From the NCBI GenBank assembly GCA_012549035.1, contig GCA_012549035.1_4805.1: a DNA stretch of 64,000 nucleotides; one strand, given 5' to 3'. Under the pieces are notes generated by a model. The model did no database searches and was not told the DNA's origin. It was given only the letters and a program-made list of their open reading frames with translations. The translations under genes and the position numbers were made by a program. Positions 3,494-49,339 of this stretch are shown here, piece after piece (within the stretch, counting starts at the first letter, position 1; each line of letters starts with the position of its first letter). The stretch is from a phage.

Positions 3494-3550
3494 AGACTCC
3501 TTAGATCTGATCAACAAATTATAATCTATAAGGAGTCTATAAGCAATATT

Positions 3551-16437: not shown

Positions 16438-17856
16438 TTATTCCCCTTTCAACCAAGCTTCAAATGCTTCGTCAGTTGCTGCAGAATCCGCAGCGGCCTT
16501 TTGTTTTGCGACTACACGCTGTTTTTGACCGTGTTCAACGCCGCGCAGATAATTATCCACAACGTCAAACTCAGCACCATCAACGCACTTCAAGCCTAAC
16601 TTTTTAGCGCCATATTTCGCTACGGACTTGGAGTCCATAGTTGCATGATCAAAGGCACCAACAACTTTAGACAGGCGCTGGTAGAGGCTATTCTTACGAG
16701 CAGAATCAGCGTAGAAAGCAGCAACTGCTGAATCAGATGCCATTGAGTGTTCCCCTTTTGCTGGACCTGGCGACGCTTTCGCCGCTTTTGTCGGTTTGTC
16801 ATCTTTTTCGACCGAAGCCCCCTTTACGTTGCTGTTTTGCAGGCCGCTAACCACATCTTCAGCTTTGTCGCAAGGTGATACATCTTCAGCCTTGACTTCA
16901 ACTTCTTCGTCTTTGACTTCGGCTTCAACTTCTTCTTCATCACCTACCGCGCCACCTTTCAGTTTTGCAATAAGTGCTTCGATTTGGCTGATCAATTGCG
17001 GAAGTTCGCCGCCAGCGTGAGATTCAGTTTCAACTTCAAACTTCTCTTCACCTTCTGGGGTTTCTTCTGCTTCTGCCTTGACTTCTGGATCAACCATTAC
17101 TTCTTCACGATTTTCGGTTGAGTCCTTCTCTTCTGCTTTCACTTCAACTTCATCCTGATGAGCAGCTTCAGCACTCTCTTCGTTCAGAAATTGTTCGAGC
17201 GCAGGGATCAGTGATTTCAGCTGTTCAACAGCATTATCACGCGCTTTACCTTTTAACGGTTTTGGCATGTCTAAATCCTCGTTGGATGGTGTTACAGTCG
17301 TCAAACAAAGATGGTCAAAGCAACGACCATCCAGCACCCGTGCACCTGGTACTCGACCAACGTCCACGAGAGCAATGTGGTTGCCGCGAAGAGTTGTCTG
17401 CACCACTTCATACGGCTGCCCGTCAAACTCTCCAGACTGTATGATGAATTCACAGTCATAGCCCAAAGACAAGTCAACCTTTCCAGAATCAATGGCCTTC
17501 TTCAGACGACGGCTAAACACTTTAAGGTCGCCGCGCATCCATGGCTTGTCATAATAAACATTGCCAGTCAGAACGCCATCAACTCCATACTCTTCGGGTG
17601 CTGTGTTATCCTCATCACCTTCAAATCCAGAAAGCATTTCGTGATTGTCGATGAAAGGGATATTTTTGAATGAATCTATCGCTTCGGGGTCTTTCACCGC
17701 TGACTCAGGGCGATAGACTTTTACGATGCGATTCGGATCACCATCAAGACCAACTTGACCAGCAGAATAATCAAAAATGCCAAATGACGAAATTGGACAA
17801 CCCATAATCGTCAAGAATCCATTTTTGTCAATTTCGCGTGCCGTTTGCATTCGCAT
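16438..17856 (-). CDS. Prohead protease / scaffolding-like protein with acidic coiled-coil region
   Basis: 472-aa ORF; Glu/Lys/Ala-rich central region typical of scaffolds; GAGGGTGG SD; alternative ATG at 17850. Confidence 0.45.
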   Translation of the reverse strand: MRMQTAREIDKNGFLTIMGCPISSFGIFDYSAGQVGLDGDPNRIVKVYRPESAVKDPEAIDSFKNIPFIDNHEMLSGFEGDEDNTAPEEYGVDGVLTGNVYYDKPWMRGDLKVFSRRLKKAIDSGKVDLSLGYDCEFIIQSGEFDGQPYEVVQTTLRGNHIALVDVGRVPGARVLDGRCFDHLCLTTVTPSNEDLDMPKPLKGKARDNAVEQLKSLIPALEQFLNEESAEAAHQDEVEVKAEEKDSTENREEVMVDPEVKAEAEETPEGEEKFEVETESHAGGELPQLISQIEALIAKLKGGAVGDEEEVEAEVKDEEVEVKAEDVSPCDKAEDVVSGLQNSNVKGASVEKDDKPTKAAKASPGPAKGEHSMASDSAVAAFYADSARKNSLYQRLSKVVGAFDHATMDSKSVAKYGAKKLGLKCVDGAEFDVVDNYLRGVEHGQKQRVVAKQKAAADSAATDEAFEAWLKGE

Positions 17857-17968
17857 CCACCCTCAAATAAGTATTGTGTATTATATCTAATGAAAAAAAC
17901 TTAGGCAAACAATAATTATGGTTTGAATATGTATAACAACCGATATAGCCGCGCCTTTATTAGTGTGA

Positions 17969-18193
17969 TACGGATGATACGGATAAAATGAGGCGTATTT
18001 TTATCCGTATCGGTGTATAAGCCGCGCTATCACTGGTGTGCTACGGATGATACGGATGATACGGATACTTTTCATATATAAGAGTTTATAAAAAAAAATA
18101 AAATTAAATTATATATATAATTTTAAATTAATTTATTTGAATTCCTATATAGTACGGCGGCAACGCGTATCATCCGTATCATCCGTAAGATTC
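17969..18193. repeat. Iteron cluster R1 (GATACGGAT-type 9-bp units) flanking extreme AT-rich tract
   Basis: GATACGGATGATACGGATA (x2), inverted TATCCGTATC, CTACGGATGATACGGATGATACGGATAC (x3), AT-rich 18075-18150, then 29-bp GCGTATCATCCGTATCATCCGTAAGATTC (18165-18193) identical to 34419-34447. Confidence 0.6.
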
Positions 18194-23396: not shown

Positions 23397-24857
23397 TTAA
23401 AGGTTAGAGAAGAAGCCGGATGCTGCAACAATTGGTTTCATCAATGCCATGATTGCGGCGTCCGCTTTGTTAGGCGATTTAACTCCACGCTTTGCCATAT
23501 CCTTTTTCGATTCAACTTTGAACTTACCAAGAACAGACGTGTCTTTGCGCGGCGCTGACATCTCAAAAAGAAACGTCTCAATTTCTTCCGCAGACCAAGC
23601 AGGAATCCCAAGTTCTGGAATGCCGTCTGTGTCGATGGAAATCAACTCATCGGTCGGATATACGGCTTGCCCTGTCGCATACTCATATGTCTTTCTGAAT
23701 CGTTCGGCAATCTCAGTCCATTTTTGCGCTTTTATGTTTGCGAAATGGTCTTTATTGAGTATTTCAACGTGTGGTAACTCAAGGAAAACGTCATCAGGAT
23801 CATCAACAGCACCTTGCGCGTTGAACGCATTAAATTCGATTCTTGGGAATGTTGGATTTTCATGTATTGCATACTCATTGAGCTCATCAAATTTTGAACC
23901 AGCAAATGCACCGACACCGATGGCGTCATAGGTAATTGACGCGCCGAATGTCAATGCGTCTTTCCAAACTCCGCTTGCGGACTTAAGCAATTCATCTTCC
24001 AGACCTTCCCATGTCTTGATGCCACGTAATACGTTGCCTGTGACGAATGCAGTGGCGTTAAGGTCGTCGCCATCGTCCGCTACGTCAAAGCCTATACGGT
24101 TAGACCCTGACAAACTCCATCCCAGCGTAGGGTGCTTGTGGAGGTTAAGCGCAGCCTTAACGAATGCGCGGTTGATTACAGATTTGTCGCCGCCAGTCTT
24201 CGGCACGCCGCCATAAACGTGCTCTGCCTTTTTCGGGTCACGCTCGTACATGCCTGCAATAACGTCCAGCATTGTTTGCGACAAAAATGGATTGTCTTGC
24301 CAGTTTATCTTTTTAACAATGGCATTCTTCGGCGGTCGCATAACAAAGTTTTGGTAGACGAAATCGGCCTCTTCATCAGGGTTAAAGATGATCCATATTT
24401 CGGACCCTTCTTTACGGATTGTCGGCTCAATAATGTCCCACTGTTCTTCAGTAAGCGCGTGCGCTTCTTCCAGCCAAAGGACGTCAACACCTTCTGTTGA
24501 TTTAATTTCATCAACGTTACGTGCGATACCGTAAAATAGAAATTCAGATTTAGTTCTTTTATGTTCAATAGAGTTCTTTAATAAATTGAACTCATCTTTG
24601 AAATCAGAAATCTCTATTTTGTCTTTTAATAGAGTATATACAGATTCAGAAATCTTGTTCTGGAATTGTCGAACGCAAAGGAATTTTAATTTGAAGTTTG
24701 CCGCCAAATAAATAGCAAAACCAGCGGCATCGTGCGATTTGGAAGATGCACGACCGCCGTATATTACTTTGTATCGCGCTTTTGTCTTCCAGACTTCTTT
24801 TAAAGCAGGATTCAACTGGTACATGACTTTCCAATTATGTGTTAATATTTTATTCAT
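23397..24857 (-). CDS. terL: Terminase large subunit
   Basis: 486-aa ORF; Walker A-like YGGRASSKS near N-terminus; acidic nuclease-like C-terminal half; adjacent to portal. Confidence 0.8.
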   Translation of the reverse strand: MNKILTHNWKVMYQLNPALKEVWKTKARYKVIYGGRASSKSHDAAGFAIYLAANFKLKFLCVRQFQNKISESVYTLLKDKIEISDFKDEFNLLKNSIEHKRTKSEFLFYGIARNVDEIKSTEGVDVLWLEEAHALTEEQWDIIEPTIRKEGSEIWIIFNPDEEADFVYQNFVMRPPKNAIVKKINWQDNPFLSQTMLDVIAGMYERDPKKAEHVYGGVPKTGGDKSVINRAFVKAALNLHKHPTLGWSLSGSNRIGFDVADDGDDLNATAFVTGNVLRGIKTWEGLEDELLKSASGVWKDALTFGASITYDAIGVGAFAGSKFDELNEYAIHENPTFPRIEFNAFNAQGAVDDPDDVFLELPHVEILNKDHFANIKAQKWTEIAERFRKTYEYATGQAVYPTDELISIDTDGIPELGIPAWSAEEIETFLFEMSAPRKDTSVLGKFKVESKKDMAKRGVKSPNKADAAIMALMKPIVAASGFFSNL

Positions 24858-29951: not shown

Positions 29952-30146
29952 ATGAATAAAAATGAATCAGTAGCGTTCTTGCAATGGCTGGAAGGCGTGG
30001 TGGAGTATTACGCACCAAAAGACCGCTTCATCTTTCAAGGTAAAAGCTTCAAGCGCAAAGGACAAGCCCAGAAAGCAGCGCGTAAGTACTGGAAGGAAGT
30101 TTATTCAGATTTCTTTCAGCACATCGGCTCAGTTGGTATCGATTGA
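29952..30146 (+). CDS. Hypothetical protein
   Basis: 64-aa ORF. Confidence 0.45.
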   Translation: MNKNESVAFLQWLEGVVEYYAPKDRFIFQGKSFKRKGQAQKAARKYWKEVYSDFFQHIGSVGID

Positions 30147-30241
30147 TGAATCCAATCGTTACAATTAACAAACCGATTTGAATGCCGCGCTATGCGGCTT
30201 TATTATAATTCAAGTTAATCACCCTCATGAAAGGTAATGAT

Positions 30242-30622
30242 ATGTCAAATAAGAATGATTCTATTCACAATACATATACTAAAGGCAGCGGCACTGCTTT
30301 TGGTTCAAGTATCAAACTTGACGCTCCATCTTGCGATTCTGATGGATTGGAAGTCGGCAACCGCGACTTAACATGGGTTTTACGTCGCCAATCCGATTTA
30401 GAAGAGAAGCTGGAAAATATTGAGCGTTCTCTCGAAAGTTTGCGCGACCAGCTTTTTGGCTGTTCTGGAGATGAGTCAAAACCTGGACCATATGCAGCCA
30501 ATCGTGGTTTGATTGATAATATGCTTGCTATTACCGCTCGATCAATTGGTAAGACTGTGTCCATTGAATCATTGATCAGCCAGATTGCGGATGGCTTTGG
30601 TGATGCCCATAAGAGTGAATAG
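30242..30622 (+). CDS. Hypothetical protein
   Basis: Likely start at MSNKND within track ORF 30227..30622. Confidence 0.5.
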   Translation: MSNKNDSIHNTYTKGSGTAFGSSIKLDAPSCDSDGLEVGNRDLTWVLRRQSDLEEKLENIERSLESLRDQLFGCSGDESKPGPYAANRGLIDNMLAITARSIGKTVSIESLISQIADGFGDAHKSE

Positions 30623-30651: not shown

Positions 30652-30677
30652 GGGTCGCTGTTGCGGCCCTTTCTTTT
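30652..30677 (+). terminator. Intrinsic terminator closing plus-strand cassette
   Basis: Stem gggtcgc/gcggccc (one G-U), loop tgtt, tail tttctttt. Confidence 0.55.
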
Positions 30678-30893
30678 GCCTGCCGCGCAGGAGTGTACTG
30701 CAAAATTCCTGTGGGTACAAAATAGTACGGTACTGTCTAGGGCTTTTTCTTTGAAAAGTTAGTGGACCAAATGTGTCGTATTTTGATTAGTGTACCGCAA
30801 ATTTCATCAAGTACCAAAACGCACCAAAAGACCCATGCCATAAAAACCACACGAACGCAATAATCAATCGCCGTTACAGTTTCCAGCGTTACA

Positions 30894-30956
30894 ATTCGAA
30901 AGCGAATGATTCGACGCATAATAATATGAAGCACAATGATTCGAAAGCGAATGATT
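30894..30956. repeat. Direct repeat TTCGAAAGCGAATGATT x2 (46-bp spacing) in untranslated gap
   Basis: Identical 17-mers at 30894-30910 and 30940-30956; each contains cgaat-N-attcg inverted motif. Confidence 0.6.
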
Positions 30957-31274
30957 GTGTGTAGGATAATATCGGTGGGGATTATTCGAGATGCATGTAA
31001 TTTCGCATGCGTACTATTTTCGGGCGAAGGGTCGGCATATTCCTCGTTTTAGTTCGGAACGAAGGGAAAGTTTTGCGCCTTTATAAAACAACGACTTACG
31101 CGACCCGCCCTAACGGTCCGATATAGGTGTCTATATAAAACAAGGACTTACTCGATGTTCTCCATTTAACGTAATACCTGTTATGCGAACTAAGGCGCAT
31201 CTCGATGAAGATTATGCGACGAAGAAGGGAAGGATAAAGGAGTTTTTTGCGGAGAAGCGCATCGAGATAGGGAC

Positions 31275-31300
31275 GAAGAAAAGCCGCGACTAAGCGCGGC
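31275..31300 (-). terminator. Intrinsic terminator closing minus-strand island operon
   Basis: On minus strand GCCGCG-CTTAGT-CGCGGC followed by TTTTCTTC. Confidence 0.5.
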
Positions 31301-31326
31301 CTATTAGTAACGGTGGGTGATTATAA

Positions 31327-31536
31327 TTAAAGGAATAATCCGGCGCGTTTAATTTGCCCAAGGACGTTATCGCGACGGCGACGCATAACCGCGTATTTAA
31401 CTTCTTCTTCGTATCCCCAGCCGCCGATGGATAACATCGCGTTCATATTATCGCATAATTCCTTAAGCTCGCGAAACATATCGATTACGGCGGTGCGATG
31501 GGCGCGCGCGTTAAGAGAGTTATTCATATTAGTCAT
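31327..31536 (-). CDS. Hypothetical protein (CpG-rich island)
   Basis: 69-aa ORF with AAGGAG SD; CpG-rich codon usage unlike flanking genes. Confidence 0.5.
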   Translation of the reverse strand: MTNMNNSLNARAHRTAVIDMFRELKELCDNMNAMLSIGGWGYEEEVKYAVMRRRRDNVLGQIKRAGLFL

Positions 31537-31546
31537 TTTCTTCTCC

Positions 31547-31837
31547 TTAAAGGCTTACGATTTTAAAGTAAGTTACTTCGCCGCCGAGTTGCGGTACAGC
31601 GATATATTCGCCGCCGATTTCGGTGATCGTATAAACGAATCCGTTAATCGTTACGCGGTAGGATACGATGTCCTCGTCGCGATACTTGTAAAGGTCGAGG
31701 AAGTTGATCGGCTCATAAATAGACTCGATAATCGCGTCGACGTTAGAGAGATAAACGCTCTCTAAGGTTTCGCCAAATACGTTAGAGTTTTCGGAAGTTT
31801 CGACGCGAGCGGCGCGGATAGCGGATAAAGTAATCAT
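31547..31837 (-). CDS. Hypothetical protein (island; paralog of 31944..32246)
   Basis: 96 aa; AGGAGA SD; preceded by conserved promoter/5'UTR cassette A. Confidence 0.55.
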   Translation of the reverse strand: MITLSAIRAARVETSENSNVFGETLESVYLSNVDAIIESIYEPINFLDLYKYRDEDIVSYRVTINGFVYTITEIGGEYIAVPQLGGEVTYFKIVSL

Positions 31838-31940
31838 AATATTCTCCTAGTTAGTCGGGAGGGTAGCGACCTATTCGCTACCTCATCCCCTCTCGATATA
31901 AAACATTATAGCCTTAGTGTACGAATAAGTAAAGCACTTT
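31838..31940 (-). promoter_or_regulatory. Promoter + 5'UTR cassette A (sigma70-like -35 TTTACT / -10 TATAAT, UTR hairpin)
   Basis: Minus-strand TTTACTTATTCGTACACTAAGGCTATAATGTTTTATATCGAG; UTR hairpin ggtagcg...cgctacc; homologous to cassettes B and C. Confidence 0.5.
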
Positions 31941-31943
31941 TCG

Positions 31944-32246
31944 TTATTTTGCGATAAAATATTTGTAAGCCTTATCGCCTTCTACGTCGATATACTCGAC
32001 GATAATTAATGCTTCGCCGCGCGGCGTAACCGTCTCGATAAGGGTAACGGCTTCGTCGTCGGTCTTCGCGAAGCGGATGGCGCTACGTTCGGCGTACTTG
32101 ATATCGTCGAAGGAAAGACCGACGAAGGCGACCGCGCGGACCTTAATGGCGCTAGATTCTAGTTCGGCGTTAACGGCGGCGATAAGAGAGCGAACGGTTA
32201 AACGGTCTTCGTCGTAAGTAAGGATGGAAGAGATTAAAGTGGTCAT
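31944..32246 (-). CDS. Hypothetical protein (island; paralog of 31547..31837)
   Basis: Start at MTTLISS (ATG 32246) after GGGAG SD; about 100 aa; track N-terminal extension lies in promoter cassette. Confidence 0.5.
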   Translation of the reverse strand: MTTLISSILTYDEDRLTVRSLIAAVNAELESSAIKVRAVAFVGLSFDDIKYAERSAIRFAKTDDEAVTLIETVTPRGEALIIVEYIDVEGDKAYKYFIAK

Positions 32247-32336
32247 AATAAAACTCCCGATGCTAGTGGAAGGAAGGGCCATCGCCCGTCTCGATATAAA
32301 CAAGTATACGTGAGTGTACGAAGAAGTAAAGAAAAA
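32247..32336 (-). promoter_or_regulatory. Promoter + 5'UTR cassette B
   Basis: Minus-strand TTTACTTCTTCGTACACTCACGTATACTTGTTTATATCGAG; same architecture as cassette A. Confidence 0.5.
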
Positions 32337-32371
32337 GATAAATAATTTATCTCATTTTTATCGAAAAAGTG

Positions 32372-32469
32372 CTTTACTTTTTTCTACACTATATTATAAT
32401 GTACTCATATCGGGACGGGATGAGTTGACGAATAGGTCGTTAACACTGCTCCCAAACTAGGAGTTTATT
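32372..32469 (+). promoter_or_regulatory. Promoter + 5'UTR cassette C (inverted copy of cassette A)
   Basis: Plus-strand TTTACTTTTTCTACACTATATTATAATGTACTCATATCGGG then GGGATGAGTTGACGAATAGGTCG...ACTAGGAG; divergent from cassette B. Confidence 0.5.
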
Positions 32470-33108
32470 ATGGCCAGTTTGAATCGTTTCTCCACCAGCG
32501 GCGACGTAATCGCAACCAAGACAGCCGACCTCGTTGCATTCTATAACGAAAATTCAGGCTCAAAGCCGATTAAAAAATTCGCGGACCGCCGGACCGCCGA
32601 GACTCGCGTAATCGCGTTAATCGAGTCCTTAAACGCGCTCGATGAGCCGTCCAACGAATCGCCCATCCCAGACGTGAAGGCGCGTGAGGAAGTGTCCAGC
32701 GATGTAAAAACGCATAAGGCGCGTGCGGTCGTTAAAAAGGCTGAGCCGACCCAGGAAGAACTCGACGCGATGAGTGATGAAGAGTATGAAGCCTTCGTTA
32801 AGAGCAGCCTTAATAGCGCTCCGGTTGGCGCTCCGGTTGGCGCGGATAAAATTGCCAGCCCTTCCCATCGCCGTTCGAATAGCGAAGGTATTGCAAAAAG
32901 TTGGGATAACAAGGAAGTGGCGCAAAAGCGTCTCACCCGTAACGGCGTTATGGTCGAGGGTGTAGGCGAGTTCAAATCGGTCCGCGTAGCGTTCGCCGCG
33001 CTGGGATTACCGGATAGCAAGCACATTCGCTTCCGCATGAAGCTTAAAGAAGCTGGACGCTTGAACTTCGAGTTCGGCAACAAGTCCTACACCTTCCAGA
33101 TTATCTAA
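32470..33108 (+). CDS. Hypothetical protein (island)
   Basis: 212-aa ORF, CpG-rich codons; driven by cassette C. Confidence 0.55.
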   Translation: MASLNRFSTSGDVIATKTADLVAFYNENSGSKPIKKFADRRTAETRVIALIESLNALDEPSNESPIPDVKAREEVSSDVKTHKARAVVKKAEPTQEELDAMSDEEYEAFVKSSLNSAPVGAPVGADKIASPSHRRSNSEGIAKSWDNKEVAQKRLTRNGVMVEGVGEFKSVRVAFAALGLPDSKHIRFRMKLKEAGRLNFEFGNKSYTFQII

Positions 33109-33115
33109 TCGAATG

Positions 33116-33137
33116 GCGGCCCTTCGGGGTCGCTTTT
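33116..33137 (+). terminator. Intrinsic terminator (UUCG tetraloop hairpin + T-run)
   Basis: gcggccc-ttcg-gggtcgc followed by tttt. Confidence 0.55.
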
Positions 33138-33158
33138 CATAGTGCAAATTGGTGGCTT

Positions 33159-33422
33159 ATGAATACGCTTATTCTCATCGCTACGTTGTCCATCGGAAGT
33201 GGTCGCACCTTATCCCTTTATGATCATAGTGCAAATTGCGCTTACCCAACGCGCGTTGCGGCGATAGTTAATAGTGCAAATCGAATGCTATTCGAGACTT
33301 GTTGGCGGGTCGATAACGAGAAAGGGCGCATCGTCTTAGGTTATAGTGCAAATCTGCTGGTGGAGTCGTTCGACTGGACGGCGGAAGGTCGTAAATTGTT
33401 ACGTAAAGTGACTAAAAGATGA
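33159..33422 (+). CDS. Questionable small ORF encoding SAN tripeptide repeats
   Basis: 87-aa ORF; GGTGG SD; three in-frame motif copies give H/N/Y-S-A-N; nucleotide-level conservation suggests the DNA motif is the selected feature. Confidence 0.25.
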   Translation: MNTLILIATLSIGSGRTLSLYDHSANCAYPTRVAAIVNSANRMLFETCWRVDNEKGRIVLGYSANLLVESFDWTAEGRKLLRKVTKR

Positions 33423-33536
33423 CTTATAATAATACACTTTCTAACGCGTTTATGGCTGCAGCCTTCCCCGTCGTATTACCGATGGCCCTAGAAGTGGAGA
33501 AAATGTGTTCTAGGGCCGTTTTATAGTGCAAATTGG

Positions 33537-34010
33537 CTAGTGGCGGGAGAATTGCTCACCCTCTTTGGCCGCCTCTCCAAAATCCTTGTAGAAATCGTCC
33601 ATGGAACGGCCCATTTTACTATTGCCATTCTCATCAATCATCGTGATGCCGTAGATGATATTCAGTTCACGAATGGCATTAAGCTTGGCTGATGCCGCGA
33701 CTTCTGGATCACGCACAAGCTTCACTAAATTGTGAATGGAACTCTTTACACTCCACAATTCCTTCAATGGCATCTCTTCCATACGCTTTTTGTAGCGCAT
33801 CTTGTAGTACGGATTGCGTTGCGTGCAGAGGATTCGCTGGCCAGTGTAGTTATCGGTCGCAACCTCCATGCCAAATACTAGTGCAAAAGCTGCGCGCATG
33901 TCATGGCCCTGAATAACAAGGTCAATGAACTCATCGAATAATGCCTGATTATGCTCTGCAAATCGCGGGTCTTCAAAGTCTTCAGGCATTGCTACATAAT
34001 CTTGACTCAT
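33537..34010 (-). CDS. terS: Terminase small subunit-like protein (putative)
   Basis: About 157 aa from ATG 34010 (MSQDYVAMPEDFEDPRFAEHNQALFDEFIDLV...); N-terminal HTH-like segment and ..AKLNAIRELN.. recall Terminase_2-type small subunits by memory; track N-terminal extension rejected. Confidence 0.45.
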   Translation of the reverse strand: MSQDYVAMPEDFEDPRFAEHNQALFDEFIDLVIQGHDMRAAFALVFGMEVATDNYTGQRILCTQRNPYYKMRYKKRMEEMPLKELWSVKSSIHNLVKLVRDPEVAASAKLNAIRELNIIYGITMIDENGNSKMGRSMDDFYKDFGEAAKEGEQFSRH

Positions 34011-34062
34011 AGTGCAAATCCCATAGTGCAAATTAATAGTGTGAATTATACAATGATTGAAC

Positions 34063-34091
34063 ATTATATTCAAGTGCAGATTGATGTTCAA
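34063..34091 (-). promoter_or_regulatory. Sigma70-like promoter for terS-like gene
   Basis: Minus-strand TTGAAC, 17-nt spacer, TATAAT; 5'UTR carries the tandem ATTTGCACTAT motifs. Confidence 0.45.
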
Positions 34092-34237
34092 ATTGGCTGT
34101 AAACGTACATAAATCATAGTGCTGAATGAATATCGGACCGTGGTGCGTGGTGTACTGTTTGATACGTATAAAAGAAATCCATCCCTTTCGCCGCTTGTTA
34201 TGCAAATCAATGACTTAGCCGCTGCTGGCTGGTTGAA

Positions 34238-34513
34238 GCGTATCATGACGTATCATCCGTATTGCCGCAAGTCTTTGTTTTTACTTATATCTTACGGATA
34301 ATACGTTAAATATATAAATTAACATAAGTATGAGGATGTAGAAAAAAATTAATTTAAATTAATTCAAAATGGAGTTAATTAATTTTTGAAATAATTCTGG
34401 TTACAATAAGGAAAAATGGCGTATCATCCGTATCATCCGTAAGATTCAGTGTACAAATCCAGGCGCGGCGCACCCTAGCGCCATGATACGGATAAAAACC
34501 TATCCGTAAGAGT
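34238..34513. repeat. Iteron cluster R2 (GATACGGAT / ATCCGTATC 9-bp units) flanking AT-rich tract
   Basis: GTATCATGACGTATCATCCGTAT, TTACGGATAATACG, 29-bp GCGTATCATCCGTATCATCCGTAAGATTC (34419-34447), inverted pair TACGGATA-N6-TATCCGTA; AT-rich block 34305-34410. Confidence 0.6.
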
Positions 34514-34741
34514 GTACGCTTCAAGCAAAGAATCCAGGCGCGGCGCGGCTTTCGCCACCACACACCACGGTTCACTCTCCAAAATCCGCACACTAAATTC
34601 CAAAATCCAATGCTCATACTCCAAAAATAAATCAAAATTTCCATTTTATTTATTATTTTCATCCACAATATCCTAAATTCTATCCGTATCAACCATGCCT
34701 CAACCCACCACTATTCACGCCACTCACTTCAAAATTTCCAT

Positions 34742-34772
34742 CGAAAACAACAAAAGGTCGCATAAAGCGACC
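34742..34772 (-). terminator. Intrinsic terminator ending minus-strand early operon
   Basis: Minus-strand GGTCGC-TTTAT-GCGACC followed by TTTTGTTGTTTTCG. Confidence 0.55.
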
Positions 34773-34824
34773 CATTGCACACATTCCATTATTCAAAACA
34801 CGTAAACGAGTGTTCTTTTATCCA

Positions 34825-47156: not shown

Positions 47157-48340
47157 TGAACATTCCAGAATTTAATGATGAGCCAGTGATTCAGTTTAAC
47201 GCGCAACAAATCGACGCCATCGAGAAAGCCGTTGCATGGTACAAGCGATTGCAGGACGGTAAAACGACGAAGCGCGTGTTTTTCATCGCTGGCTATGCAG
47301 GAACTGGTAAAACCTCTATTGCTCGCGAGATTGTGCGCCGTTGTGTCGGTGAGTATGGAGCTATCTATATTGCGCCGACCGGAAAGGCTGCAAGCCGATT
47401 AAAGCAAAAAGGCTGTCGTGGCGCTAAGACCCTTCACCAGTTCATCTATAACGTGCGCGGCGTAAATGACGACAATGAGCCAATCTTTTCGAGAAAGTCA
47501 AAGCTGGATGAAAGGCCGCACCTTGTTGTACTCGATGAAGCGTCGATGGTTGGCGAGTGGGACACAGAGCGCCTTCTTGATCACCGCATCCCTGTCCTGG
47601 CATTAGGCGACATTGGACAAGTCCCTCCGGTAAAAGCCGCCGCCTACTTTACTGAAGATGCCGTTGACGTACTGTTAACAGAAATCATGCGGCAAGGGAA
47701 AGAGTCCAATATAATCCGCGCCTCCTTCTTCGTGCGCCAAGGCAACCGCCTTCCTCCGCGTGAATACGATGACGTCAAAGTATTGGCAGAATCGCCGCGC
47801 GTTACTGCATTGAAGAAATTCATGGGCGAAGATGATCAAATTATTTGCTCCTATAATAGCACCAAAGATAAATGGAATTCATTATTACGGCAAGTGAGCG
47901 GACGTATAACGCCAATGCCAGGAATCGGCGAGAAAGTTATTTGCACCTTCAACCAGCACGGGCCAGGATTCTGTAATGGCGAGCAAGGGATTGTTATTAG
48001 CTATGAGCCAGTGCCGGACTTTGAAAGGGATGAAGATGAGTCGAATGAAATAATGTATGTCAACTTGCGTTCATTGACTGATGGTAAAGATATAAAGGTA
48101 AAGATTAATCCTCTTTCCTTCTCTACTGATCAGGAAGTGCGCAAAGAAGCGCAACGTGCTGTTGGCGGGATGGACTACGGCTATGTCATCACGGTGCACA
48201 AATCGCAAGGCAGCGAGTGGGACAATGTGTGCGTGCTGGAAGAAATCTTGCGCGGCGTTCCGTACTCCAAGATGATGTACACCGCTATCACCCGTGCTAA
48301 GAAGAATCTGACCGTGTACCGTGATTTGAAAGCGCGTTAA
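47156..48340 (+). CDS. SF1 DNA helicase (Dda / RecD-like)
   Basis: Walker A AGYAGTGKTS, motif II VVLDEASMV, C-terminal VITVHKSQGSEWDNV. Confidence 0.75.
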   Translation: MNIPEFNDEPVIQFNAQQIDAIEKAVAWYKRLQDGKTTKRVFFIAGYAGTGKTSIAREIVRRCVGEYGAIYIAPTGKAASRLKQKGCRGAKTLHQFIYNVRGVNDDNEPIFSRKSKLDERPHLVVLDEASMVGEWDTERLLDHRIPVLALGDIGQVPPVKAAAYFTEDAVDVLLTEIMRQGKESNIIRASFFVRQGNRLPPREYDDVKVLAESPRVTALKKFMGEDDQIICSYNSTKDKWNSLLRQVSGRITPMPGIGEKVICTFNQHGPGFCNGEQGIVISYEPVPDFERDEDESNEIMYVNLRSLTDGKDIKVKINPLSFSTDQEVRKEAQRAVGGMDYGYVITVHKSQGSEWDNVCVLEEILRGVPYSKMMYTAITRAKKNLTVYRDLKAR

Positions 48341-48493
48341 TGTTGACGTAAATTTACGAAAAATAAAACTGAAAATCAGTTTAATTAAAGTGGCATTGCC
48401 GCCATAGTTTTTAGTTGCTACTGGCGGCAACTGAAGGCATAATTAAGTTATCCCAAACGGGGAATATAAAATAAACTAATTTATTTAAGGACT

Positions 48494-49339
48494 GTGAATA
48501 TGGCCGAAGCAATCAAAGTATTATCTAAAGAAGAAAAACAAGCAGCCGCAGCAGAACGTCGTCGCGTGGCTGAAGAAAAACGCCTGGCTAAAAAGAAAGA
48601 AGCCGAAGAGAAACGCCAGAAGCGTGAGCAGGAAAAACAAGCCAAGCGTGAAGAAGCTGCGCTGAAACGCAAGCAGGCTGCTGATGAGAAGGCTCAGAAG
48701 CGTGCTGAAGAAGCAGCTAAGAAAGCTAAAGAGCGTGCAGAAAAGGCTGCTGCTAAGAAAGCAGAGCGTGAAGCCGCTAAAGCAGCAAAAGAAATCGAAA
48801 AGGCAAAGGCTAAAGAAGAAGCCAAGCGCCTGAAAGCTGAGCAGGCTGCGGCCAAGAAAGCAGAGCGTGATCAAGCCCGTGCTGCAGCGAAGGCCGAAAA
48901 AGAGAAGGCCAAAGAAGAAGCTAAAGCGAAACGCAAGGCAGAGCGTGAAGCTGCTAAGATTGCGGCGAAAGAAGCTGCAGAACAGCAGAAAGAACAGCGT
49001 AAGAAAGAAGCTGAAGAACGTCGCAAAGCCATCGCAGAACGTAAGGCTGCTAAAAAGGCAAACGGTCAGCGTCGTGCAAAAGCCACTCACTTCATCTACA
49101 CTGGCAATGGCCTGAGCCAGCCGCAAGAGCATTCCACTCGTGGACGCGTTCTGGCGGCGATCAAAGAAGGCGAAGTTGGCGTGGCGCAGTCTATCGATGA
49201 GCTGGGCGAAAAAGTTAAAGATCAACTGTTTGGCGCTTCCGTTCGCTCCTACCTGAGCAAGCTGGAAGAGATGGGCCACATCGAGTTTGTCGATGTTGAA
49301 TCCAACGACGATGCTGAAGACGGTGATCAAGCGGAATAA
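48494..49339 (+). CDS. Lys/Ala/Glu-rich low-complexity protein with globular C-terminal domain (histone H1 / TolA-like)
   Basis: About 190 aa of KAKE/AAKK repeats followed by non-repetitive 90-aa C-terminus. Confidence 0.55.
   Translation: MNMAEAIKVLSKEEKQAAAAERRRVAEEKRLAKKKEAEEKRQKREQEKQAKREEAALKRKQAADEKAQKRAEEAAKKAKERAEKAAAKKAEREAAKAAKEIEKAKAKEEAKRLKAEQAAAKKAERDQARAAAKAEKEKAKEEAKAKRKAEREAAKIAAKEAAEQQKEQRKKEAEERRKAIAERKAAKKANGQRRAKATHFIYTGNGLSQPQEHSTRGRVLAAIKEGEVGVAQSIDELGEKVKDQLFGASVRSYLSKLEEMGHIEFVDVESNDDAEDGDQAE

Follow-up and report, generated by a model that had tools for sequence, protein, structure and literature searches.

The intergenic gap and its phage

The region under study is an untranslated gap at positions 30678-31274 of a 64-kb stretch of phage DNA (64,000 nucleotides, hereafter the window). 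It is flanked by two convergent genes, 30227..30622 on the plus strand and 31327..31536 on the minus strand. The original prediction, which was made from the letters of the window, had placed the gap between two facing terminators, and both of these were identified:

30652..30669, plus strand: intrinsic terminator with a 7-bp stem (6 GC pairs) and a T-rich tail, 3' of gene 30227..30622
31281..31302, minus strand: intrinsic terminator closing the early operon of the direct terminal repeat (DTR) with genes 31547..31837 and 31327..31536

The plus-strand terminator closes the operon on the tail-fibre side and is annotated as a terminator in WFH and WFC; the minus-strand terminator is annotated as such in Mansfield, WFH and WFC. 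Directly before the plus-strand terminator, Mansfield harbors a 36-bp expansion of TCGTGGG-type repeats (~3500-3540, homologous to window ~30647), and F13 and SP13 carry one additional unit of this type at that place. The gene adjoining the gap on its other side (31327-31536, minus strand) encodes a 69-aa transcriptional regulator (phrog_10377), which is found in about half of the Wifcevirus genomes and is cleanly missing in Mansfield, WFH, WFC, kaset, Bas98 and Bas100.

The region is matched at 86-96.5% identity by 29 deposited phage records, all of which are Wifcevirus or Wifcevirus-like myophages of E. coli and Shigella, including FEC19, ECML-117, Ro157lw, Mansfield, WFH, WFC, vB_Eco4M-7 and Bas98-101. 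Judged by its sequence, the window is a Wifcevirus-type E. coli myophage; Wifcevirus is now placed in the family Lindbergviridae, together with Pbunavirus. A search of E. coli genomes with the gap gave no match, and a search of IMG/VR for distant relatives with the flanking proteins returned near-identical Wifcevirus genomes only. A scan of IMG/VR with a degenerate DNA pattern gave 15 matches, which were judged likely to be due to chance. Within a T run at ~31240-31245, the window carries one extra base that is absent from all 12 aligned relatives; this private 1-bp insertion is either a true mutation or an error of homopolymer sequencing.

Position of the terminal-repeat border

Deposited relatives place the inner border of a 3.5-3.9 kb DTR in the homologous gap. 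The two genome ends were compared in the records carrying both DTR copies (WFH, Ro157lw, SP13 and WFC), and the annotated repeat of Mansfield was added (accessions: Mansfield MK903282; WFH/WFC MK373776/7; Ro157lw MH051335):

WFH: DTR of 3701 bp, copies identical, border ...GGGTCTTT / TGGTGCG...
Ro157lw: DTR of 3533 bp, copies identical, border at the same nucleotide as in WFH
SP13: DTR of 3899 bp, copies identical, border at the same nucleotide as in WFH
Mansfield: DTR of 3673 bp, annotated and PhageTerm-predicted, right copy absent from the record, border at the same nucleotide as in WFH
WFC: DTR of 3784 bp, copies identical, border 83 bp further out and still within the gap

Thus, in four of the five records (WFH, Ro157lw, SP13 and Mansfield) the border is shared at one nucleotide. 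In the orientation of the window it reads ...CAAAACGCACCA / AAAGACCCATGCC... and lies between positions 30826 and 30827. The left ends of all records read ...AATTAACTCC / ATTTT..., and genome position 1 corresponds to window position 34370 on the minus strand. The same sequence is therefore present at both ends of close relatives, with its inner border in the gap, and terminal repeats of ~3.7 kb were described for WFC and WFH (Korf et al.). By homology to these relatives, the DTR border of the present phage, and hence the right end of its genome, is placed at 30826/30827, and the gap is identified as the junction of unique DNA with the inner end of a DTR of ~3.5 kb:

30827..34370, minus strand: single collapsed DTR copy of 3544 bp, both ends mapped from relatives
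30819..30833: 15-mer of the type ACGCACC/AAAAGACC across the DTR border; the cut at 30826/30827 corresponds to the right physical end in the minus-strand reading

With this border the gap consists of 149 bp of unique DNA and the last 448 bp of the DTR. The original prediction had missed this decisive point, namely that the gap would be a DTR boundary and as such a physical end of the genome. Of 14 genomes, 13 have an identical 15-mer across the cut; a second copy of it at 30010 is not conserved and was treated as a chance occurrence.

Further features of the DTR and of its left border were recorded. Three early sigma-70 promoter cassettes lie within the DTR, at 31880-31933 (minus), 32280-32330 (minus) and 32373-32430 (plus), and they share the sequence CTTTACTT-N-[GC]TACACT-N5-TATAAT as well as a conserved leader, ATATCGRGASGGG-ATGAG. 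Since a similar promoter and leader (TATATCGAAACGGG) are found in the DTR of Serratia phage MTx, the cassette leader may be functional. The heptamer ATCCGTA occurs 22 times in the window, where ~5 occurrences are expected, and clusters in two non-coding regions, 17966-18193 and 34255-34688. One cluster lies upstream of the DUF2213 gene 16438..17856, probably at the start of the head-gene operon, and the other surrounds the left DTR border (34370/34371); both are linked by an exact 29-nt repeat, GCGTATCATCCGTATCATCCGTAAGATTC, at 34419-34447 and 18165-18193. The two clusters may represent a module in common, either for a regulator or for late promoters. Immediately beyond the left DTR border, the non-coding DNA (34371-34824) occurs in at least three very different versions among the relatives, unlike the conserved gap at the right border, and is built of ATCCGTAAG..TGTAC..CCAGGCGCGGC units.

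A conserved module at fixed distance from the predicted cut

On the unique side of the border, the following elements were identified:

30785..30826, plus strand: module GATTAGTGTAC-N-AAATTTC-N-AAGTACCAA...CGCACCA on the unique side of the cut, with TTAGTGTAC at 30787-30795
30692..30708, plus strand: upstream copy of the AGTGTACYGCAAAWTTC word in unique DNA, 128 nt from the cut

The deposited end of the DTR lies 40 nt from the end of the GTACACTAA motif in WFH, Ro157lw and Mansfield, and 41 nt from it in SP13. Pantoea phage Kyle has identical DTR copies of 3603 bp which, in the conventional orientation, end 41 nt from the end of GTACACTAA. As only ~70 alignable bases are common to Kyle and Wifcevirus here, the Kyle boundary cannot be copied by homology. 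When the gap alone was used for BLASTN, the sole match outside Wifcevirus was Pantoea phage PA1 (Kylevirus), and this match extended over exactly 30787-30855, which includes the cut. A convergent non-coding gap lies at the syntenic position of PA1, which also carries a second, upstream copy of the AGTGTACYGCAAAWTTC word.

In an alignment of six sequences, TTAGTGT-C was invariant in Wifcevirus, Kyle, PA1 and Serratia phage MTx. The boundary determined by PhageTerm in MTx lies 54 nt from the motif, compared with 40-41 nt in Wifcevirus and Kyle, and the CGCACCA word of MTx occupies the place of the Wifcevirus cut. Both this 14-nt offset and the 83-bp offset of the WFC border are either real differences or imprecise calls. 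A conserved sequence at a fixed distance from the cut, as would be expected of a pac-type site, is thus present in diverged relatives, with MTx deviating.

The heptamer AGTGTAC is enriched near both DTR borders of this genome, where six of its nine hits in the window are found, all on one strand. The idea that the pairs of AGTGTAC at both borders are a common terminase site was discarded, as relatives do not share the two sites beyond the left border and carry TGTAC variants there, within a different repeat unit. AGTGTAC is also present in the spacers of two early promoters and could be the site of a regulator rather than of the terminase. Only the AGTGTAC site at 30789 is supported across genera.

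A 15-bp periodic array and other repeats of the gap

Two regions were distinguished on the DTR side of the cut:

30845..31024, plus strand: degenerate 15-bp array of ~12 units with the core RATSATTCG, ~180 bp at the DTR side of the cut
31025..31274, no strand assigned: conserved non-coding block of 250 bp with a 25-nt repeat pair at 52-bp spacing and two TCGAGAT sites

All repeats that had been listed for the gap were recovered. The 17-mer described as a direct repeat is present twice, but is in fact part of an exact 18-nt repeat, ATTCGAAAGCGAATGATT, at 30894 and 30939. The GTTTTATA(A/T)A words are located on the minus strand within the 25-nt repeat (88% identity, 31079-31103 and 31131-31155), and the GCGCATC...GA repeats are found at 31195 and 31257. 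TCGAGAT has three of its five window-wide occurrences in the gap (30986, 31199 on the minus strand and 31262 on the plus strand). In none of 300 shuffles of the gap was the observed length of the longest direct repeat or the observed number of repeated 8-mers reached. Ranked among the 597-bp windows of the genome, the gap belongs to the top 1.4% for the longest direct repeat and to the top 5-6% for repeated 8-mers, and it is not the most repeat-rich region of the genome. The most internally repetitive stretch of the window is 48300-49200 (up to 95 repeated 8-mers per 597 bp), which has a strong AT skew (0.33) and overlaps ORF 48494..49339.

What had escaped the initial description is that the repeats follow a period of 15 bp: the 17-mer corresponds to two units of the array plus a palindrome. 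TRF reported a period of 15 with 4.2 copies at 30894-30956, and autocorrelation identity exceeded that of shuffles with z 4.7 at lag 15, 2.8 at lag 30 and 5.7 at lag 45. When the whole 64-kb window was scanned in an unbiased way for identity at lags 15, 30 and 45, the array region ranked first among 4255 windows (z 6.2). The array occupies the first ~200 bp of the DTR and is found at the same place in Kylevirus, with the core TAAYCATTCG in PA1 (~15 units) and TAAYSATTA in Kyle (~14 units); in both loci it is the top-scoring region. Its last two units (30986-31020), CGAGAT..TAATTTCGCATGCGTACTATTT / CGAGAT..TAATTTCGCAYGCGTACTATTT, are common to the window and PA1. Bas100 lacks exactly 45 bp, i.e. 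three units, in register. No other part of the gap varies as much as the array (nucleotide diversity 0.08), which would be expected of sites that are redundant. No array was seen in MTx or in Pbunavirus JG024, the latter of which also has no equivalent gap, and the array is therefore not universal in the family.

Constraint, coding capacity and RNA structure

For the analysis of sequence constraint, 8.7 kb around the gap was aligned with 13 relatives, giving 14 genomes:

gap, 30678-31274: nucleotide diversity 0.043, 16% variable sites
40 bp on each side of the cut: nucleotide diversity 0.028, 6% variable sites
third codon positions of neighbouring genes: nucleotide diversity 0.10-0.21, 27-58% variable sites

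The gap is two to five times less variable than nearby third codon positions, and the part from 30991 to 31274 has a diversity of 0.040. In ECO71P1, the most divergent record, identity is 95.6% in the gap and 85.9% over a 1.8-kb query that includes the flanks. Because gap diversity is below that of third positions and the identity of ECO71P1 in the gap is above that of its flanks, neutral decay is excluded, and we conclude from the alignment that the gap is under purifying selection. In the BLASTN comparison with relatives that had been suggested as a check, the gap was likewise conserved (94-97% identity in annotated Wifcevirus).

Ten ORFs of at least 31 aa lie in or overlap the gap. None of them is intact in all 14 aligned genomes, none shows an excess of third-position substitutions, and no AGGAGG-like ribosome-binding sequence was seen in the 20 nt upstream of any gap ORF start. 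One gap ORF is shifted by the private 1-bp insertion of the window, and the small CDSs annotated in Mansfield, kaset and SP13 are not conserved. The statement that the gap holds no convincing ORF is borne out by the lack of any ORF conserved among the 14 genomes.

A covariance search of the gap against Rfam gave nothing at gathering score and, in a permissive search, one terminator-like match (E 0.2); a tRNA search found nothing. Folding of the whole gap gave z -2.24 for the plus strand and -1.31 for the minus strand. In 120-nt windows z was never below -3.1, with the lowest values coming from the terminator and palindromic repeat units, and for the best-conserved block (31023-31205) it was near 0. 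A hairpin at 30991-31012 is broken by a change of GCA to TCG in 7 of 12 aligned relatives with no compensation.

The original prediction had offered three explanations for the length of the gap: a structured RNA, a protein-binding platform or a pseudogenised cassette. A structured RNA is not supported, given the absence of an Rfam family, the unremarkable folding and the uncompensated hairpin break. A pseudogenised cassette does not agree with a gap that is less variable than silent sites and whose likeness to the cassettes is within the range of shuffles; frameshifted gene remnants, which had been proposed as something to look for, were not found. The protein-binding platform is favoured by the evidence, and the binding itself we infer.

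Terminase genes and the packaging model

The genes of both terminase subunits were located in the window:

33537..34010, minus strand: small terminase (TerS) gene, 157 aa, second ORF and first conserved gene at the left end of the DTR
23397..24857, minus strand: large terminase (TerL), Pfam Terminase_3 (E 3e-37)

The small subunit matches TerS of Pseudomonas phage E217 (PDB 7UXE, 10 chains) with E 9e-33; its gene is annotated as terminase small subunit in Mansfield and is conserved across Lindbergviridae. TerS is thus a candidate reader of the cis elements in the gap. TerS of E217 is a decamer whose gene lies far from that of TerL, and it showed no appreciable DNA binding in vitro (PMC9611059).

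Taken together, we propose that in this DTR phage the gap serves for end formation and packaging recognition, a reading to which we assign a probability of about 60%; terminase binding, as well as the assignment of array and module to particular steps of end formation, we infer. In this model, replicating concatemers would hold one copy of the repeat between neighbouring genomes, and the terminase would have to cut precisely at each repeat border. The gap would supply the cis-acting DNA for the border at 30826/30827: on the unique side the TTAGTGTAC module, whose distance to the cut is fixed at 40-41 nt, and on the repeat side the 180-bp array followed by 250 bp of conserved DNA. TerS would bind the array, the module or both and, once bound, would position TerL such that the cut is made at 30826/30827 and the right terminus of the mature genome is created. 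Neither early nor late transcription would enter the region, as both would be stopped by the facing terminators. In many phages the pac site is found within the TerS gene or close to it. Here the TerS gene is located at the opposite DTR border from the gap, which counts against the packaging model. Further points against it are the deviating borders of WFC (by 83 bp) and MTx (54 nt from the motif), the lack of the array in MTx and JG024, the high variability of the array together with the loss of three units in Bas100, the DNA binding by E217 TerS that was not appreciable in vitro, and the alternative role of AGTGTAC as a regulator site.

A more specific version is speculative, and we consider it rather doubtful: the 15-bp array might be the recognition site of the E217-type decameric TerS, with one unit per subunit and the DNA wrapped around or laterally engaged on the ring, while the TTAGTGTAC module, 40 nt further on, would determine where the nuclease cuts. 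If this were true, the wrapping model of TerS-DNA recognition could be tested on the array as a natural substrate, and a TerS family with a solved structure, for which DNA binding in vitro was not seen, would gain its long-missing target. Independent of this version, motif and array are a concrete, testable candidate site for a TerS family that has a solved structure and no known DNA target.

Alternative functions of the gap

The strongest rival to packaging recognition is a platform at the inner end of the DTR with another role, resembling Repeat Region 3 of T5. Bound to the repeats of the gap, a host or phage protein would halt DNA entry for a time, shield the DNA end or control early genes. 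Repeat Region 3 is conserved, untranslated and rich in repeats; most of it belongs to the terminal repeat, with 270 bp extending into unique DNA. It is better conserved than many ORFs encoded in the repeat and is thought to hold the injection stop signal (Davison, bioRxiv 10.1101/866236). The layout of the present gap is similar, 448 bp of it belonging to the DTR and 149 bp to unique DNA; the DTR has the small genes and strong sigma-70 promoters expected of an early region, and the 52 bp between the 25-nt repeats is the spacing noted for inverted repeats of T5. Nevertheless we regard this role as unlikely, since DnaA boxes (TTWTNCACA), which are paired in the T5 region, number 0 in the gap and 2 in the whole window, the gap has no sequence similarity to T5, two-step injection is not reported for these phages, and end formation is suggested by a motif whose distance from the cut is fixed in two genera. 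Lower still is the probability of a replication origin or a site of concatemer recombination with the 15-bp repeats acting as iterons. Tandem short repeats in a non-coding region insulated from transcription are typical of origins, and the region is conserved, but against this stand the missing DnaA boxes, the lack of a visible AT-rich unwinding element in the gap, a G+C content of 42-45% in 1-kb windows over the gap that is like the rest of the window, a cumulative GC skew that has no extreme here, and the absence of an adjoining initiator gene.

One or more non-coding RNA genes between the two terminators appear improbable to a similar, slightly greater degree. Weak promoter-like matches on the plus strand (30896-30925 and 30941-30970), the T tail following the hairpin at 30991-31012 and the folding score of the whole gap on the plus strand would fit such genes. 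However, the promoter-like hits are the repeat units themselves, each with 9 of 12 matches, and the empty Rfam search, the loss of the hairpin in more than half of the relatives compared and the local folding, which is unremarkable and flat over the best-conserved block, all argue against them. The least probable explanation, to which we give very little credence, is a promoter or gene cassette of the DTR that has decayed and drifts neutrally. It would account for the resemblance of the minus-strand words CTTGTTTTATATAGAC to ACTTGTTTATATCGAGAC, the -10/leader segment of the promoter at 32330-32303. Yet when the three cassettes were aligned locally with the gap, 16 to 190 of 200 shuffles scored at least as high as observed, and the low variability of the gap and its lack of ORF remnants speak against decay.

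Comparison with known systems

In the annotated Wifcevirus genomes Mansfield, WFH, WFC and Ro157lw, the same locus is 94-97% identical to the gap, and the end of the DTR is annotated or can be deduced at the homologous nucleotide. That a DTR ends at this gap is therefore already implicit in the GenBank annotation of relatives; the basic identity of the gap is known and is ordinary for a DTR phage. Whereas the Wifcevirus records and papers state the length of the repeat alone, the fixed-distance motif, the 15-bp array and the selective constraint are added here. A search of the literature gave no description of any of these three, and the constraint, the cross-genus motif and the array thus appear to be undescribed; in combination they make a concrete candidate packaging signal.

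Assemblies of fixed-end phages collapse the terminal repeat, and genome ends consequently hide in intergenic gaps that look ordinary; a long, conserved and ORF-free gap between convergent genes can flag such an end. Wifcevirus phages are candidates for the biocontrol of O157 and can already be rebuilt from PCR fragments, and the exact end and its cis elements matter for engineering and rebooting of their genomes. For vB_Eco4M-7, a system of in vitro assembly and rebooting is published (PMC11074155).

The 157-aa protein encoded in the DTR is a clear homologue of the E217-type TerS (PDB 7UXE), and in both phages its gene stands apart from that of TerL. Pbunavirus genomes are described as terminally redundant and circularly permuted (PMC12345254), and JG024 has neither gap nor array, whereas the branch of Wifcevirus and Kylevirus has fixed ends. 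Fixed ends would accordingly be a trait of the enterobacterial branch, comprising Wifcevirus, Kylevirus and Myosmarvirus.

Repeat Region 3 of T5 resembles the gap in being conserved, untranslated, rich in repeats and placed across the border of a terminal repeat, but spans 1.2 kb and is defined by its DnaA boxes, while the gap is 0.6 kb long and has none. At the T7/T3 concatemer junction, the terminal repeat carries pac elements and is flanked by arrays of short CCTAAAG-type repeats. Common to these phages and the gap are the packaging of fixed-end DTR genomes, non-coding DNA at the border and short periodic repeats adjoining it. The systems differ in that the T7 repeat is 160 bp long, while the repeat here is 3.5 kb and contains genes, and no sequence similarity exists between them; unlike T7 and T3, the present phage is a myovirus with a Terminase_3 TerL and an E217-type TerS. 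Moreover, packaging of T7 is linked to transcription, whereas terminators shield the border in the phage described here.
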